A DNA stretch of 64,000 nucleotides from the NCBI GenBank assembly GCA_019057475.1, contig DXJO01000038.1:59725-123724 (forward strand), read 5' to 3'. This stretch comes from Candidatus Thorarchaeota archaeon. Lineage in GTDB: Archaea; Asgardarchaeota; Thorarchaeia; Thorarchaeales; Thorarchaeaceae. The position numbers were made by a program, and so were the translations under genes. The notes beneath the pieces are model-generated. The model did no database searches, had not been told where the DNA came from, and saw only the letters and a list, made by a program, of their open reading frames with translations. Positions 6,167-19,421 of this stretch are shown here, piece by piece. The stretch's first letter is position 1; each line of letters begins with the position of its first letter.

Positions 6167-6427
6167 GCGGCGCTCTTGCAGCCGCGGAATAGTATTCAAT
6201 CTGTCCTGTCCGTTTGTTAAGTACCAGTAGTAAAATCGTTACCGTTGAGCGGCACGTTTCGACAGTCGAGATACCTTGCTCCCTCTTGCTTTTGCTAGGC
6301 CGCGTTGGAACACCACTAGAACGCATCCTTGAAGCACTCTGTCGTGCTACACTGGCTTATATGTAAGATTTCAAAGTTGATATTGGAGAGGAACGTGATT
6401 CAGTCAAGTGTGTCTAGCCATCCGGTA

Positions 6428-6832
6428 ATGGTCGATGAGTTTGTTCTACTGCGCAGGCCAGCCGTTCCTCGCTTTTGGGATTCTGATGCAAGGCCGCATG
6501 TTGCTGCCATACTGGATGATCCTGTGACTGGAAAGAAGATGCGGTACTATCTGTCTACATTTCCTCAGGGCAATGTCACAGGTCGCATACCGCTTGAGGT
6601 AGTTGATATAGACGCACTTGGGCTTACAGAAGGCACCGGCCTTGAGGTGCGATTTGATGACATGAGATCCAATCTATACAAGCTGGAGCTTGTCGAGAAT
6701 GTGCCATGCTGGCGATGGGTAGGCCGCAGTAGAGGACTGCAGGATGTCGAATACCCGCCGTCCATTGAAAGAGCGTGGGGGAATCTCGTGTACGATGCCA
6801 CAGCTGGAGCAGACGAGCTCGTGAAAAAATAG
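6428..6832 (+). CDS. Hypothetical protein
   Basis: Protein-like 134-aa ORF (ATG 6428; track start 6329); no recognised motif. Confidence 0.6.
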   Translation: MVDEFVLLRRPAVPRFWDSDARPHVAAILDDPVTGKKMRYYLSTFPQGNVTGRIPLEVVDIDALGLTEGTGLEVRFDDMRSNLYKLELVENVPCWRWVGRSRGLQDVEYPPSIERAWGNLVYDATAGADELVKK

Positions 6833-6902
6833 ACCGTTCTCTCACTTGACCAGCTTTTTCGTAGGATAGAAAAACATTGACCTCATTGCTACAGAGGAAG
6901 TG

Positions 6903-7190
6903 CTAATGGACAACTTCCAATTGCTCCTTCTCAATCCCCTTGACAATCTCAAGGATTCGTCTTCCTCTGGCACTTATCCTGTAGAAGTCACCCGCTTCAG
7001 TGAATACATGATCTACAAGTGCAAGTCTGTCCAGGTTTGCAACTGCTCTTGAAACCTGCGGATTGTGTGAAACTCTCAACGCTTTTTTCAAACTTGTGAA
7101 CGTCATCTCACTCTCACCTAATGATTCCAAGATTTTCAATGACCATTTATGATTCAATACTTCTTTCAATATATCAACAGTATTAGTCAT
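6903..7190 (-). CDS. HxlR-like winged-helix transcriptional regulator
   Basis: LNHKWSLKILESLGESEMTFTSLKKAL...VSRAVANLDRLALVDH...YRISARGRRI; start placed at ATG 7190 because the region upstream holds operators. Confidence 0.8.
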   Translation of the reverse strand: MTNTVDILKEVLNHKWSLKILESLGESEMTFTSLKKALRVSHNPQVSRAVANLDRLALVDHVFTEAGDFYRISARGRRILEIVKGIEKEQLEVVH

Positions 7191-7206
7191 TTCAACCACA
7201 CAACCA

Positions 7207-7243
7207 GTAACATTAGCGTTACCATCAGTAACAATAACGTTAC
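7207..7243. promoter_or_regulatory. Tandem palindromic operators GTAAC-N6-GTTAC
   Basis: GTAACATTAGCGTTAC (7207-7222) and GTAACAATAACGTTAC (7228-7243), 21-bp spacing, beside the AT-rich TATA-like TTTAAGTATA (7251-7260). Confidence 0.75.
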
Positions 7244-7286
7244 TTGGCGATTTAAGTATATCCATTGATTCATACAAGGTTGTAGC

Positions 7287-7889
7287 GTGGTAAGAGCGAT
7301 GTTTCGTGAGGAACTCAGTGAACAAGGCAAAGCAGAAGATCAAAACATCGCCCTCTGGAAACGTGATCACGTTGTCTTTCTTCTTGGCTCCGGTTTTCCC
7401 CCAGAAGCCTTGGAATTCAGGAAGAAAGCAGGGAAGGCGCTCAAGGACCGTGGATACGATATTCTTGTGATGGGGGAGCTAGATGGGGCTCCGACTGAAG
7501 ATGACAGCAAGGAGCTTGCAAATGAGAAGTTTCGGCGAATATTGAAGAACTATAGACCGAACTTGTTTCTAATTCTGGTCAGTCAGAGTCTGCCAGCTGC
7601 CAATGGGGTGACCTACGAGATTGCCACACTTATTGAAAGACATGGAATCAAGAAGGCAAGTAGTATGATTCGTATGTGTGCCAAGAAGATAAAATCTGAT
7701 GGGGACTCGGATCAGAGCGTGATTAATGAATTGATTTCAGCTGTAATTCATTACATGATGTACCTACAACTACTCAATCAGGCTGGCTTCAAACTGGATG
7801 TCATTGAAGAGGATTTCTTGTGGACCGCAACCCTTGAGATAACTAAGGAACCAGATGAACAGCTCTTCGATATTCTCATCCCGTCCTAG
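7287..7889 (+). CDS. Hypothetical protein, putative nucleoside 2-deoxyribosyltransferase/TIR-like alpha/beta fold
   Basis: VFLLGSG...R...LKDRGYDILVMGE...LFLILV...GVTYEIA pattern recalls NDT-like folds; fold call is inference. Confidence 0.55.
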   Translation: MVRAMFREELSEQGKAEDQNIALWKRDHVVFLLGSGFPPEALEFRKKAGKALKDRGYDILVMGELDGAPTEDDSKELANEKFRRILKNYRPNLFLILVSQSLPAANGVTYEIATLIERHGIKKASSMIRMCAKKIKSDGDSDQSVINELISAVIHYMMYLQLLNQAGFKLDVIEEDFLWTATLEITKEPDEQLFDILIPS

Positions 7890-8048
7890 TCTGGAACTCT
7901 CGTGTTCCTTGGCAGGTCAAGATTATTACTAGTCTGGTTGATTTATGTAATCAGACTGTGAACGCCCTTCTGATATCAGCAGGCTGTGTTTGGCAAGTAT
8001 TAAAACCAAGCTCATCAATAGGTTATGCTCACTCAAGGAGGTGAAAGA

Positions 8049-8342
8049 ATGCCTATCTTTGTAATCCTTGCAAAGTTCACAACTGAAGGTATCAAGGGAA
8101 TAAAGAAAGCCCCAGAGCGGCTTAAGGCTGCTCAAGAGATTGTCAAATCTGTTGGTTTTGAGATTAAGGGCGCTTACTATACGATGGGCCGATACGACTA
8201 TGTTGCCATTGTCGAGGGACCATCTGTCGAAGCCGCGATGAAAGGTCTGTTCATGCTTGGTACTGGAGGAGTAGTTAAGACCGAAACTCTTGTTGGACTC
8301 TCAATGGAAGAAGCTTTGAAGGTCATTTCAGAGCTACCTTAG
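8049..8342 (+). CDS. GYD domain-containing protein
   Basis: FVILAKFTTEGIKGI...YYTMGRYDYVAIVEGPS...VKTETL; RBS GGAGGTGA upstream. Confidence 0.9.
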   Translation: MPIFVILAKFTTEGIKGIKKAPERLKAAQEIVKSVGFEIKGAYYTMGRYDYVAIVEGPSVEAAMKGLFMLGTGGVVKTETLVGLSMEEALKVISELP

Positions 8343-8571
8343 TGAGTCCTCCCTGGTATATGTCAATTAGCACTGGCACCGCATCAAGTAGAATGCACCA
8401 TAGTCCACCCGCCAGTTGAACATTCCTGTGTCGTCAATTTTCCGGTGTGCAATTCACCATCAGCCATTTTTAGTCTCTTTTGTTTCATGGAGTATGCACC
8501 TATTTGGTGGCTTGTTACAAACTGAGCGAGATCCAGAATGCAATCCACAGTATCATCATCGGCGGGTTTGG

Positions 8572-8633
8572 AGAAATGGTGGCGGGTGGTCGATTCGGAT
8601 GGCCAATCTCGAGGCTATGGGCCCTACGGGATA
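8572..8633 (-). repeat. Degenerate intron-less copy of the 3' two-thirds of tRNA-iMet (att-like pseudo-tRNA)
   Basis: 8577-8633 aligns ungapped to the spliced tRNA at 42/57 nt, CAT anticodon retained; the flanking AGAAA is also shared. Confidence 0.8.
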
Positions 8634-8795
8634 CGAAGGTATGCGAACGCCCTTCTGGGCAACATTCATCTCCTTATGATACGACGTAGTTATGGACCCG
8701 ATTGGGCGTCACACAATCGCCTGGTATGATTCTGTTCGCCCTGCTGCTTCGAGTTCGAAATCTGTGAACGCATCGACACGGCATCAAGAGCGGAG

Positions 8796-9581
8796 ATGAA
8801 GGTCATGAAGATACCATGGGACTGGGACTCCAAGGAGATACAGATAGTCACTTTGCTCGTGATAGTACTCCTCCTGTTTGCGCCGTTATTCTTTGGTCTG
8901 TACATAATCTACGTGAATCCTCCTCTGGCAAGTGTAGAATATGGTGGTGAAGACACGTTCGTCAGCTCTCTAGACTCTAGTGAACATTCGACAGACCCAA
9001 TTATCAGAATCAGCAATTATACTGATGACGGTCATGAAACAGTCGAGATTGGCTTCTTTGAATTCGACTATGTACCTTTGCCAGGTGGCGGAGAGGTCGT
9101 TGCCGTGTACTTCAGTTTCTCTTGCGACGAGGTATTATCAGGTGGTTTGGTCCTATTCCACACCATAGAAAATGAGAGCCTGTGGAGCCCTTTCGTCACC
9201 GATCTTGAGAATCTGACCTACGCGAGCATGCCTTCGTATCACTCAACGCCATTTACCACGACTGATGTGGCAGCAAACGGAACCTACACAGTCAAGCTCT
9301 CTTCGCCTGGCGGACCTGCTGAGAATCATCTTTCCGCAGTTGTAGTGGTTGTAATTACTGCTGAACAAGGAGTTCGGCTTCTGCTAGATTCCCTTGAATC
9401 GTCTGTGGTATCACGTGTACCGCGGATGATTGTGTACCAAACAATCGGATTCATGATCCGGAATCCTTTGGTATACTACCTACATCCTTTGTCCTTAGTG
9501 CCTGTGCTCGCCGCAGCCATCTTGTTGAAAGTTCTCTATCAAAAGGTCAGAGCCCAGAAAACCGCTTTCACACCCGGCTAG
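8796..9581 (+). CDS. Membrane-anchored surface protein, DNRLRE/CBM96-like domain between N- and C-terminal TM helices
   Basis: N-terminal TM (IVTLLVIVLLLFAPLFFGLYIIYV), EDTFVSS...GFFEFDYVPLPGGGEVVAVYFSF pattern, C-terminal TM followed by basic residues. Confidence 0.6.
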   Translation: MKVMKIPWDWDSKEIQIVTLLVIVLLLFAPLFFGLYIIYVNPPLASVEYGGEDTFVSSLDSSEHSTDPIIRISNYTDDGHETVEIGFFEFDYVPLPGGGEVVAVYFSFSCDEVLSGGLVLFHTIENESLWSPFVTDLENLTYASMPSYHSTPFTTTDVAANGTYTVKLSSPGGPAENHLSAVVVVVITAEQGVRLLLDSLESSVVSRVPRMIVYQTIGFMIRNPLVYYLHPLSLVPVLAAAILLKVLYQKVRAQKTAFTPG

Positions 9582-9680
9582 TTGCTGGACATTGTAGCGA
9601 TATTGACCGGTTTGAGGCTGAGCTGTCTGAACGTGAAGCTGTGAGCATGGGGAAATGGCTTCTGTCAACCTCATCTGGGT

Positions 9681-9700
9681 AGAAGAAATGGTAGCGGGTG
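9681..9700 (-). repeat. 20-bp exact copy of tRNA-iMet 3' end plus flank (att-like)
   Basis: AGAAGAAATGGTAGCGGGTG identical to 11414-11433. Confidence 0.85.
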
Positions 9701-9756
9701 GTGACTTCTGAGAGCATTTATGAGCGGTCTGGAATATGGTATAGCGGGTATGAACT

Positions 9757-10245
9757 GTGCGATATGGCTTGGAAGCAGCAGGAGTGATCATTCTGGCCCT
9801 TTTAGTAGCTACATCCTTGTACTGGTCATATCAATCATATCTATCATATCGATTCAGTGTGGTCGAATTCGAGAAAACATACTTCGAAGGAGAAATGTAT
9901 TCGGGCCCAAACAGTGAAGGTAGATGGAGTGTTCACTTTCCTGCTCAATCAATCAACTGGACCATTGAGATCGACATAATGTTTCTGGAAGACAGCTTTG
10001 ACCTTGTAGTCGTTTTTGGCTTCCTCTCTTGGGACGAATATCAGAGTAGGAGAGAAGACGACCCCAGTGTCATCTATCTAGAGAAAATCAATGTATCAGA
10101 AATCACGGAAACAATTACGATGGACCTTCAGGCACATCAAAGCACAATTCGAATCCTGCTAAATCATGAGAGCAGCTTAACCCTGACAGGGCACATTGTG
10201 GCACGATGTCTTGCCCCCAGATGGGCACGTTGGGATCCCCAGTAG
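9757..10245 (+). CDS. N-terminally membrane-anchored hypothetical protein
   Basis: Hydrophobic N-terminus (AAGVIILALLVATSLYWSY) then beta-rich soluble domain. Confidence 0.7.
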   Translation: MRYGLEAAGVIILALLVATSLYWSYQSYLSYRFSVVEFEKTYFEGEMYSGPNSEGRWSVHFPAQSINWTIEIDIMFLEDSFDLVVVFGFLSWDEYQSRREDDPSVIYLEKINVSEITETITMDLQAHQSTIRILLNHESSLTLTGHIVARCLAPRWARWDPQ

Positions 10246-10328
10246 CACTGATTCATTCGCTGACCTGCGTTGAGCAAACTGTGTAACCGCTAATGGTAAG
10301 GCCATGATGCCAATGAGTCACATAGAAG

Positions 10329-10345
10329 AGAAACGGTGGCGGGTG
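10329..10345 (-). repeat. Degenerate copy of tRNA-iMet 3' end (att-like)
   Basis: AGAAACGGTGGCGGGTG, 15/17 to 11417-11433; abuts the TPR gene stop codon. Confidence 0.7.
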
Positions 10346-10346
10346 G

Positions 10347-11249
10347 TCACGCATCCTTGACCTTTGCTTTATTCCGTGGTATGAGAAAACCATTCTCATC
10401 GCGCATAGCATCCGGATTGATCCTGAAAAGCTCGCTCAAAGCAAACCTCGTACTCGATGCATCTTTCTCGCGACCCATCTCATTGTAGATTTCGACTAGT
10501 TGCTCCCATCCATCTACGAAGTCAGGCCTGAGATTCAAGGACCTCTGTATTGCATACTCAGCTTGTTTCAGATACCCCCCTTCCATATACATCTGGGATA
10601 GCCGCCACCAATGGTCCATCTCATTATTCCCTAATTCTACAACTCGTTCCTGTGCTCTAATCCCCTCTCTAAGCCGCGCCTGCGCATACAGGGTCCTTGC
10701 GAGTAAGGCCCAAGCTCTCAAATCGCTCTGATTATTCTCGATAATGGAGCGCGTTAAGTTCTCAGCTTCTTGATATCTTTCCACATGAACCAACATTATC
10801 GCAAAGAAGAGGCGACTGTTCCTATCTTCGGAATCAATCTCCAGGGCTCTCCTAAAGGCCGATTCGGCTTCTTCATTTATCACGTCAGTGAACAGTACTC
10901 CGAGTGTACACCACACCTTCACATTGTCAGGCTGCAGTTTCACTGCTTTCTGTAGAAACATCTCAGCTTCATTCCATCGATCATCTATGGTCATGAGATA
11001 AGCTGCATAAGCTGTCATGGCCCACCAGTGATCTGGATCTATGCGAAGAGCAGTAAGATAGCAGGTTTCTGCATTCTCATAATTCCCTGTGCTGGCTAGT
11101 AGCCTTCCAAGATTCGCCCATGGCTCCACGAAGACTGGGTCGTACCCGATTGATTTCTTGTAAGCTTCAAGGGCTTCTTGGTGTTTGCCGTTCTCTGCAA
11201 GTCTATTTGCCCTCTTGTTCCATTCATATGCATCCTTACTCGCTGTCAT
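10347..11249 (-). CDS. Tetratricopeptide repeat (TPR) protein
   Basis: Repeated TPR units (W..LG...A...Y..AL..DP). Track start 11447 lies inside the tRNA, so ATG 11249 (or 11279) is preferred. Confidence 0.88.
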   Translation of the reverse strand: MTASKDAYEWNKRANRLAENGKHQEALEAYKKSIGYDPVFVEPWANLGRLLASTGNYENAETCYLTALRIDPDHWWAMTAYAAYLMTIDDRWNEAEMFLQKAVKLQPDNVKVWCTLGVLFTDVINEEAESAFRRALEIDSEDRNSRLFFAIMLVHVERYQEAENLTRSIIENNQSDLRAWALLARTLYAQARLREGIRAQERVVELGNNEMDHWWRLSQMYMEGGYLKQAEYAIQRSLNLRPDFVDGWEQLVEIYNEMGREKDASSTRFALSELFRINPDAMRDENGFLIPRNKAKVKDA

Positions 11250-11421
11250 TATTTCTCTCAATTGCTGATGAATCGCCATTCCTATTGAAGTCCTATTGGC
11301 CACAGAATCCAAGTTGCTGCACTTTGACCAAGCGCTCTGGTGCAAGAAACCTCTCGAGCCAATCTTGCCAGCGCTATCTTGATGTTCAATATGATGAGCA
11401 ATTTGGAATGAAGAGAAGAAA

Positions 11422-11535
11422 TGGTAGCGGGTGAATGATTCGAACATTCGATCTCAGGGTTCCTCAAATGCCCGTTTCTTAAAAAACAGGCTTAATATGA
11501 GCCCTGCGGGATAGGCCTGGCTTCCCCAACCCGCT
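11422..11535 (-). tRNA. Initiator tRNA-Met(CAT) with 35-nt intron at 37/38 (11461-11495), CCA encoded
   Basis: AGCGGGT acceptor (A1-U72), CAGGG-CTCATA[intron]A-CCCTG with three G-C pairs, TTCGAAT loop; BHB helix CTCA/TGAG. Confidence 0.95.
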
Positions 11536-11771
11536 ATTTGAACAAACAGGTGCCAGAATGAAAACATTCTCGCTGCTTGCATCTCTCGAATCACGTCACG
11601 CGGGTTTTAAGGGTTTTCATAGGCCGAGTCAAGAAGCTTTCTTTCGTTTCTGTCTTCGCCGTTCTCTCGCCTCGTCTTCCTTCAGTGGGGTGTATAAGAC
11701 CTATCAATGCATCCAGAACTGACAAATGCTATCCTACATGATGAGAAGCTACAATCATCCGGTGAGGGACA

Positions 11772-18719: not shown

Positions 18720-19421
18720 ATGTCCAAGAAGCCTGAAACTCTTCATGACAGTCGCATATTCACCTATGATGATTCCCACTGGGAACTCCTGAACGAGCTA
18801 AGAGAGAGAGCACTTGAGGTGATGCAGGCACTACAGGACAATGGTGTCACTTCGTTTGTGTACGGCTCAGTCGCCAGAGGGGATGTCAGCAAATTATCTG
18901 ATATCGATATCATCATTCCCTATACGATGTCCAGCTACAAGCTCGAGATTGCAATTGGCTCGGGCATTAGGAGAGAGCTTGTTCAAGCAACTCCTTCTAT
19001 GGTCCTAAAGGGGCACATCTGTCTTGAGAATGACATTGTAGTCACTTTTCCCCTCTTCAAGTTCAAGTCGCGGGAGGAGGAGTTCTACCGATGGGGTGGA
19101 CAAATGAGCACCAGCCAACTCATCGAAAGAATCCGTGTTCCTGGTGTTGACAAGAGATTGATTCTGATTGAGCCTAGCGAAACGGGACATGTGGAACGCG
19201 GCGTCATTGGCTACGAACATATGGCAGCGAAGAAGGTGGGTGTAAGCATTGATATCGCAAAGGATAGGGTACGAGTGCTCACTCGTCGTGATAGTGTTGG
19301 TCGCACAGGTGTCTACTTAACCAGAAACCTCTCTCCGGATGAGAGCTTCGAGGCTGTTGCTAAGGACCTAATGGACAGTGACCCAGCTCTGCGACGCACA
19401 ATTAAAAGACGTGAGAAATAG
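18720..19421 (+). CDS. Pol-beta-superfamily nucleotidyltransferase (archaeal COG2413-like)
   Basis: YGSVARGDV...SDIDI, EFY.WGG, RVPGVDKRL, GRTGV. Confidence 0.88.
   Translation: MSKKPETLHDSRIFTYDDSHWELLNELRERALEVMQALQDNGVTSFVYGSVARGDVSKLSDIDIIIPYTMSSYKLEIAIGSGIRRELVQATPSMVLKGHICLENDIVVTFPLFKFKSREEEFYRWGGQMSTSQLIERIRVPGVDKRLILIEPSETGHVERGVIGYEHMAAKKVGVSIDIAKDRVRVLTRRDSVGRTGVYLTRNLSPDESFEAVAKDLMDSDPALRRTIKRREK

Follow-up and report, generated by a model that had tools for sequence, protein, structure and literature searches.

A variable array of small gene units behind tRNA-iMet in Candidatus Thorarchaeota, with a LAGLIDADG nuclease module as candidate driver

The window, a stretch of 64,000 nucleotides of Candidatus Thorarchaeota DNA, contains a tRNA-iMet(CAT) gene on the minus strand (11422-11535) that anchors an array of small gene units. 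The gene carries a 35-nt intron at position 37/38 (11461-11495), and the A1-U72 pair and three G-C pairs of the anticodon stem can be read from its sequence; ARAGORN calls it solely when introns are allowed, and Rfam missed it. Three minus-strand copies of its 3' part follow, namely a short copy with acceptor strand, CCA and T-rich trailer (10329-10348), a second short copy of the 3' end (9681-9703) and a long, degenerate, intron-less copy of the 3' two-thirds (8572-8633), which starts at a common sharp boundary in the D-stem. The matches to a 17-mer of the tRNA end that an earlier note had reported were reproduced: 15/17 at 10329, 17/17 at 9684 (20/20 with flank, from 9681) and 16/17 at 8572.

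Each of the three intervals between these repeats holds one gene, as that note had claimed. Unit A (10334-11421, minus strand, 1088 bp) contains a TPR gene (10347-11279) whose stop codon, reported to lie at the repeat, overlaps it; this unit is absent from all other loci fetched. Unit B (9689-10333, minus strand, 645 bp), with a plus-strand gene (9757-10245) for a 162-aa N-anchored membrane protein, matches a unit of genome G005 end to end (83% over 1-645/1-631) with different neighbours. Unit C (8577-9688, minus strand, 1112 bp) carries a plus-strand gene (8796-9581) for a 261-aa two-TM protein, which had been called DNRLRE-like but has no Pfam or NCBIfam match; the unit is found again, over its full length, in G001, twice in G005 and in G006, with different neighbours each time. 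The three-unit array is real, but its proposed extent (8572-11535) was too small, and the variable region covers 6862-11535. It continues with a plus-strand piece bearing a GYD-domain gene (7689-8571; gene 8025-8342), which lacks the distal repeat and is found in this genome only among the loci fetched, and with a truncated two-gene unit D (6862-7688; hypothetical gene 7287-7889, plus; HxlR-like HTH gene 6903-7370, minus), which in G005, G006, G081 and L152 is bounded by repeats at one end or at both. Beyond it lies a conserved flank gene (6329-6832, plus strand), which stands 0.2-0.7 kb after tRNA-iMet in genomes with an empty site. A promoter scan of this archaeal DNA with a bacterial model stayed at chance level.

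With regard to the repeat, the 17-mer is not a common genome-wide motif: with up to 2 mismatches it occurs at 7 places in the 3.34-Mb genome, 4 of them here and 3 clustered on contig C24, against a chance expectation of ~0.5 genome-wide and 0.0002 per 3-kb stretch. The GGGTGGT variant of the copies, formerly taken as a donor-type att, proved to be the resident T-stem allele of tRNA-iMet in other Thorarchaeota, so an element-specific att need not be its origin. Copies are degenerate, of mixed length (20-65 bp), and their T-stem alleles assort independently of the unit ends. Long copies start sharply 11 bp 5' of the anticodon loop, with identity rising from 0.23 to 0.9 within 2 nt and little conservation upstream, and this 5' edge is identical among 24 non-orthologous units; other copies begin at the T-loop or the acceptor strand. 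Moreover, long copies bear different introns, and 16 of the 24 intron-less ones have G37 where the tRNA has A37. A weak A/T motif precedes the copies in one genus. A retro-element origin, with the copies as primer-binding sites or cDNA, was ruled out by the introns and genomic trailer that they include.

In Ca. Thorarchaeota, for which all compared genomes are MAGs, tRNA-iMet-anchored units in the 1-kb range (about 1.2 kb) are bounded by tRNA 3' copies, and array size varies by genus: none in several, 4-8 units in the present genus and 15-32 copies in another. Eight genomes have empty tRNA-iMet sites, and others have arrays of 15 and 23+9 copies. The refuting condition of the earlier note, a fixed gene order with repeats that are not breakpoints, does not hold: downstream of tRNA-iMet, relatives differ in both number and order of units, and the breakpoints fall exactly on the repeats. 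Orthologous units match over their full length, from repeat to repeat, but stand in different orders. It is evident that gain, loss, duplication and reordering affect entire units. The genes are in mixed directions in the window, and in 36 units of G068 and G069 24 are antisense and 18 sense. Besides the surface or interaction genes that had been supposed to make up the cargo, units also carry restriction-modification, Argonaute, toxin-antitoxin and transporter genes. A strict 17-mer test had suggested that only tRNA-iMet has copies, but BLAST with longer ends found copies of tRNA-Ala, -Leu, -Tyr and -Thr. Many unrelated anchors (acd, tRNA-Ala and others) occur within one genome, and Thorarchaeota have several additive gene arrays, the present locus among them. 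In addition, close species differ in the D-loop, anticodon and T-loop introns of the tRNA.

On contig C24 of the same genome, a 3.03-kb three-unit block is an exact circular permutation relative to the intact unit H in G081. Its junctions are not at repeats, and an empty site is present on C20. Such a permutation points to a circular intermediate and indicates that at least one block once existed as a circle.

In seven genera, tRNA-iMet is abutted by a module of a HerA-like ATPase, a large protein with a C-terminal double-motif LAGLIDADG domain and a small wHTH-like protein (G005, G013, G020, G063, G069, G070, G072, G086, G092, G098 and G106), and five further database contigs have the module beside tRNA-iMet at the same S24e-MinD locus. 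Pfam misses these nucleases, whose domain sits within a protein of 700-1200 aa. An earlier fold from 4 sequences was poor; the present predicted fold (pLDDT 92) resembles the TliVMA intein endonuclease (Z 16.4, rmsd 3.0, 187 aligned) and PI-PfuI, I-Tsp061I and I-DmoI (Z 13-15). The first acidic motif (D) and the second (D/E-G) are each kept in 39/39 sequences of alignment A3. The predicted LAGLIDADG fold and the catalytic acids are intact, and both features are shared with free-standing homing endonucleases of this family. The nuclease lineage is associated with the anchor tRNA, not with the host or the ATPase: on the nuclease tree the iMet label requires 3 changes, against a mean of 9.8 after shuffling (none of 500 shuffles reached so low a value), and the Asn label 2. 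G086 (iMet) and G025 (Asn) are 77% identical in the ATPase and 32% in the nuclease, whereas G005 and G069 (both iMet) are 40% and 48% identical, respectively.

The window itself contains a scar of this module (11629-11682, minus strand), in which the small wHTH-like gene survives as its final 17 codons with the stop; 15/17 amino acids are identical to the C-terminus in G063, the stop is shared and the DNA is collinear up to the tRNA, while the remaining 6.1 kb of the module are missing. This association suggests that the locus formerly held the module. A D-loop intron is present in 8/10 tRNAs beside the module and 11/27 without it, a weak association (Fisher p 0.06, with kin that are not independent). 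The idea that two nuclease clades make two boundary classes was dropped, as a single clade occurs with both long and short copies. Arrays with no detected nuclease occur in G068, G015, G029 and G088, which are incomplete genomes; iMet arrays are missing from families f9 and f12 alike, although f12, unlike f9, has the nuclease.

On these grounds, the homing-endonuclease module, not an integrase, is the best candidate driver, and we lean towards the explanation that nuclease cuts together with host recombination build the array. The nuclease would cut the tRNA gene of a recipient, and repair from incoming donor DNA would rebuild a whole tRNA, often intron-bearing and presumably a resistant allele. 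The same repair would import the DNA behind the donor tRNA and shift the former 3' end further downstream. Long copies would owe their sharp edge to a cut at a fixed place, and shorter ones would result from resection. Recombination between existing copies may then excise and re-insert circles, shuffling the order. The module would be transient, which would explain why most arrays, including this one, are without it. However, a passenger nuclease could track its site through linkage alone. Moreover, the edge of the long copies lies at a possible start of an integrase core, and the common G37 is what an element-borne att might show; both points count against the nuclease model. The arrays with no detected nuclease, the clade that occurs with both copy lengths, the weak intron association and the 8 tyrosine recombinase matches elsewhere in this genome weigh against it too.

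A visiting tyrosine integrase is a rather unlikely alternative, in which helpers at tRNA-iMet would bring integrase-less, cis-mobilisable units and then excise, the module being cargo or defence. The three start points of the copies are classic sublocations of integrases, and the long-copy edge is presumably also the expected start of a tyrosine-integrase core site. The G37 variant, the A/T motif and the circular intermediate are in its favour, and precedents exist in 15 Dehalococcoides ssrA islands without integration module (PMC3146451) and in transient tycheposons (10.1101/2020.12.28.424599). On the other hand, the search for such enzymes at the arrays was negative. In agreement with the earlier note, no tyrosine recombinase (PF00589) is encoded on the contig of the window. 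The 8 matches elsewhere in this genome are all away from tRNA-iMet, and the proposed trans-acting tyrosine recombinase was not found, with none in or beside the arrays of 86 genomes. Neither integrase nor integrase fragment was found in ~90 units, genomes with 7-32 copies gave zero PF00589 matches, and G068 (32 copies), G015, G029, G088 and G001 have no integrase at all. Units of 6-10 kb that span from tRNA to copy contain nothing but cargo and the ATPase-nuclease module. Large serine recombinases were absent from the 5 genomes tested, where resolvase matches lie on other contigs. IMG/VR gave no exact match to two att-like patterns, and no integrase-bearing helper at the tRNA-iMet site emerged from the 86 MAGs or these scans, though helpers may be transient. 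Finally, many unrelated anchors per genome would demand many unseen integrases.

Host homologous recombination alone, with copies from ancient insertions as short homology arms for uptake and loop-out and no dedicated enzyme today, appears improbable as the full account. The short, degenerate, uneven copies, the independence of T-stem alleles from unit ends, and the many array-bearing genomes with neither integrase nor nuclease agree with it, but it leaves unexplained both the same sharp edge in 24 non-orthologous units and the tracking of site by nuclease. It probably accounts for the shuffling step. False orders by mis-joining of contigs at short repeats are very improbable. All genomes are MAGs, and G063:C286 and G081:C271 resemble contigs of this genus binned elsewhere; yet the copies are divergent, mostly with exact stretches of <30 bp, differences between orthologous units amount to 8-22%, the G005 order across a contig break is repeated by another assembly (L149), and the C24 junctions are away from repeats.

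Thus the observation of the earlier note was confirmed overall, while its interpretation is supported for the variable tRNA-anchored array and the circle, and unsupported for the recombinase, the surface-only cargo and the integron-like sites. The Thorarchaeota array is not an integron. Its three copies in the window fold no better than shuffles (z 0.5-0.9), giving no attC-type hairpin, and the search for IntI and attI gave no PF00589 match, either on the contig or next to the tRNA-iMet genes of the 86 genomes. What it shares with integrons and CALINs, including Asgard ones, is small, mostly one-gene units, up to 23 in a row, with reordering and circular intermediates (10.1101/2022.02.06.479319); integrons rely on IntI, attI and attC hairpins, whereas the array uses tRNA fragments as sites and has genes both ways.

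In fungal mitochondria, LAGLIDADG mobile ORFs supply a gene with a fresh 3' end and move the previous one downstream with no integrase; the nuclease gene then lies behind the rebuilt gene, although these are single insertions without ATPase or accumulating cargo units. Like tRNA-targeted integrative elements and tycheposons, our units lie between a tRNA and a direct repeat of its 3' portion, but have no tyrosine or serine integrase of their own; like cis-mobilisable elements (accretion), they are att-bounded and integrase-less. Dehalococcoides islands also stack behind a tRNA-like gene (ssrA), each closed by a 3'-end copy with one conserved mismatch to the gene, and some are cis-mobilisable without integration module; 16 have a serine integrase module, with a conserved motif upstream of the repeat (PMC3146451), whereas the Thorarchaeota units are ~1.2 kb, reordered and without recombinase in any unit. 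As far as these sources go, the flexible, additive Ca. Methylopumilus island, which has 3' repeats of tRNA-Lys (PMC10872708), and the tycheposon-built islands of Prochlorococcus (10.1101/2020.12.28.424599) likewise have a variable stretch that follows a tRNA and contains partial copies of it, many unknown genes and elements mostly gone; tycheposons encode tyrosine recombinases and leave integrase fragments, unlike our units, and neither source describes a nuclease link or unit-level shuffling. The free-standing homing endonuclease SegB of T-even phages, also encoded beside tRNA genes, cuts in a tRNA motif and spreads together with the DNA that flanks it; through cutting and recombination it can also amplify DNA in tandem, both in cis and in trans (PMC2330249, PMC13096335). 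However, SegB is a GIY-YIG enzyme of a phage genome that transiently amplifies one segment, whereas here a LAGLIDADG domain goes with a HerA-like ATPase, and the arrays, which lie in an archaeal chromosome, are stable and made up of different genes. Literature searches turned up no account of arrays of this kind, or of the module, in Thorarchaeota.

Taken more broadly, there is about an even chance that Thorarchaeota possess an integrase-free cassette system, in which a family of LAGLIDADG nucleases, coupled to ATPases and with a different conserved gene end as the target of each, would repeatedly open these ends, capture donor genes, swap tRNA introns and leave integron-sized arrays of >30 units that host recombination reshuffles via circles. 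If true, the archaeal group closest to eukaryotes would have a second route to integron-like gene libraries, one that works by DNA breakage and needs no recombinase. Rapid gain and loss of tRNA introns would thereby have a concrete mechanism, and the old idea that such introns shield genes from mobile DNA becomes directly testable. The arrays also supply genes for defence and membrane proteins, and in the nucleases nature provides a series of meganucleases with shifted targets.

The array is anchored at a tRNA-iMet(CAT) gene (11422-11535, minus strand) that carries a 35-nt intron at 37/38. The three copies of its 3' end reported in the earlier note, at 10329, 9681 and 8572, were all recovered with the identities claimed for them (15/17, 20/20 and 16/17), and the copy at 8572-8633 corresponds to the 3' two-thirds of the tRNA without the intron. 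That note allowed that the 17-mer might be a common genome-wide motif. A scan of the window's own genome (G000; 3.34 Mb in 56 contigs) with up to two mismatches gave only seven sites versus about 0.5 expected, clustered in the window (four) and on contig C24 (three). The cargo in the window comprises one TPR protein and two membrane proteins. Since neither membrane protein has a match in Pfam or NCBIfam, the DNRLRE label formerly attached to the surface protein is unsupported. Elsewhere in the window, Rfam gives a weak hit to a C/D box sRNA (sR39, E 0.095) at 18865-18920 (minus strand); this stretch shows box-like motifs and lies within an ORF.

When related loci were cut at the repeats, the resulting units aligned from first base to last. 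Outward from the tRNA, the window reads A (10334-11421, the unit with the TPR gene), B (9689-10333), C (8577-9688), a GYD piece (7689-8571) and a truncated D (6862-7688). The order is x, C in the related genome G001; 90-bp unit, Y, C, E, B, D, F, C in G005 (reproduced by a second assembly across the contig break of G005); F, C, D in G006; z, J, D at locus L152; and J, H, D on a contig of G081. Among the compared loci, unit C has four distinct neighbours on its upstream side and four on its downstream side. All the compared arrays terminate at one flank gene (6329-6832; 167 aa, family unknown), which occurs in 69 of 86 Thorarchaeota genomes, mostly in synteny with tRNA-iMet, and directly follows tRNA-iMet at empty sites in eight genomes of four genera. 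The units are discrete, and cassette number and order vary among relatives with breakpoints at the repeat, the pattern that the earlier note proposed to look for. Two contigs (L054 of G063 and L063 of G081) are near-identical to the genus of G000, which may reflect mis-binning or a recent transfer. At L060, L062, L066 and L086 the functional tRNA-iMet gene is preceded by additional 5' copies of it, either full or partial, and an inverted tRNA with a short copy at L067, L068 and L055 suggests inversions at repeats.

A second, displaced tRNA-iMet array lies on C24 (L001:167-3200) as a circularly permuted block of 3.03 kb: it consists of the end of unit H, a copy, unit J, a copy, a 90-bp unit, a copy and the start of H. 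Joining its ends yields a gapless H as found in G081:C271, and its removal gives back, with no gap and no duplication, the sequence in which contig C20 ends. From this permutation we infer a circle; the simplest reading is that three units circularized between two copies, opened within H and inserted elsewhere. Its insertion, some 15-20 bp away from an nrdD-like fragment, is at the margin of a 16-kb element that encodes a tyrosine integrase (C24:18317-19444) besides D5-type primase-helicase, PCNA-like and ParB-like genes.

In another Thorarchaeota genus, g10, arrays reach 15 copies (G069) and 23 + 9 copies (G068), with a median unit of 1187 bp, one gene in 26 of 36 units and genes in both orientations. 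Among the genes carried there and in G063 are those for a type II methyltransferase, an Argonaute, deaminases, antitoxin-like proteins and transporters. Superintegron-sized g10 arrays at tRNA-iMet (L057:1-8700, L056:4700-20000, L058, L070, L076-L078) carry restriction-modification, deaminase, antitoxin-like, transporter and hydrolase genes, and unit B of G063 bears a 4.9-kb insertion (L054:4194-9439) that encodes an Argonaute of 969 aa and also has an antitoxin-like gene. Within G000, the end of an acyl-CoA dehydrogenase gene (its last ~22 codons, stop and hairpin) is repeated in an array of 11 copies with a common 5' edge (C26:102009-133373), with further copies on C8, C22, C28 and C51. A tRNA-Ala(GGC) gene with a D-loop intron is followed by an ATPase-nuclease module and seven 3' copies (C21:65070-83310), three more being on C9. 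These arrays, together with about 20 single 3'-end duplications of other genes, indicate that the process is not bound to one site. On C9 (28657-29523), the last codons and terminator of one gene are present as three downstream copies.

The module recurs beside tRNA-iMet and comprises a HerA-like ATPase (PF01935), a protein of 700-1200 aa and a small wHTH-like gene. In G092, L146 and L148 the tRNA and a 3' copy enclose it as a unit of 6-10 kb, in which no integrase was found; in G005, G020, G063 and G069 it is located just upstream of tRNA-iMet. The large protein has a C-terminal LAGLIDADG domain, whose predicted model (pLDDT 92) has TliVMA intein endonuclease (Z 16.4), PI-PfuI (15.3), I-Tsp061I (14.3) and I-DmoI (13.0) as best structural matches, and both acidic motifs are retained in 39/39 sequences. 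Some 140 copies are spread over 48 of the 86 family genomes and one other Asgard family; most examined copies adjoin a tRNA 3' end (iMet, Asn, Ala, Gly, Trp, Thr), and five more homologues from other databases are all at the tRNA-iMet locus. The tRNA-iMet and tRNA-Asn genes adjoining the nuclease often have 2-4 introns (D-loop, anticodon, variable arm, T-loop; L055, L062, L146, L148, L097-L101, L108, L112). In the nuclease tree, which omits the partial-domain rows L101, L112, L026, L103, L124 and L136, anchor labels cluster irrespective of host genus: the iMet label takes 3 changes where shuffling gives 9.8, and Asn takes 2 where it gives 9.7. Because kin share labels, the decoupling of nuclease from ATPase is the stronger point: ATPases 71-79% identical at different tRNAs accompany nucleases 26-33% identical, and same-tRNA nucleases can be closer to each other than their ATPases are.

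In G000 the module is confined to two places, tRNA-Ala (C21) and a fragment of a mutase gene (C42:398321-406508). The C42 module, with a nuclease protein of 1457 aa, runs directly into this fragment, the 3' portion of a methylmalonyl-CoA mutase-like gene. The window retains a scar at 11629-11682, where the third gene survives as its final 17 residues (15/17 identical to G063) and stop codon; the DNA there is collinear and leads on into the tRNA promoter. G001 bears the same scar, and the related locus L149 has a whole 6.1-kb module at this position. By this sequence comparison, the module was once present at the window's tRNA-iMet and has since been deleted.

On balance we lean towards a nuclease-driven formation of the arrays. 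The nuclease would cut a recipient tRNA gene, repair from donor DNA would rebuild the gene and push the old 3' end away, and recombination between copies would excise circles and re-insert them. As SegB shows, tandem amplification and the spread of flanking DNA can result from a free-standing nuclease that targets tRNA genes (PMC2330249, PMC13096335). Host recombination alone seems improbable as the whole explanation.

Accretion by a visiting tyrosine integrase is the main rival, and a rather unlikely one. It fits the edge at which the long copies start, 11 bp 5' of the anticodon loop, and the G37 found in 16 of 24 intron-less long copies. This edge lies in the D-stem and is sharp: within two positions, identity to the tRNA climbs from 0.23 to 0.9 in 31 copies, and 24 non-orthologous units have little common sequence upstream of it. 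Certain long copies bear differing anticodon introns, other copies start at the T-loop or acceptor strand, and D-loop, anticodon and T-loop introns of resident tRNA-iMet genes vary even among close species. Precedents are the integrase-less ssrA islands of Dehalococcoides (PMC3146451) and tycheposon islands (10.1101/2020.12.28.424599). Against it, no integrase was found in what was searched. PF00589 has eight matches in G000 and none on the window's contig, bearing out the earlier remark that no integrase is nearby; the trans-acting recombinase proposed with it did not emerge, and none of these matches is beside tRNA-iMet. The same holds at tRNA-iMet across 86 family genomes, and several array-rich genomes have no PF00589 match at all. 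A profile of G000's own integrases did not match the arrays, and a search of five genomes yielded no large serine recombinase.

The description as an integron-like array of single-gene cassettes stands in so far as the units are small, mostly one-gene and reordered, but the array departs from integrons on three counts; it therefore works like an integron yet is not one. Copies tested for attC-like folding did not show it. Additive islands anchored at tRNA genes with 3' repeats are already known (PMC10872708, PMC3146451), and the literature, partially covered, gave no report of such arrays or of the ATPase-LAGLIDADG module in Thorarchaeota. The window array is real and is a form of tRNA-anchored accretion, possibly with a new mechanism behind it.
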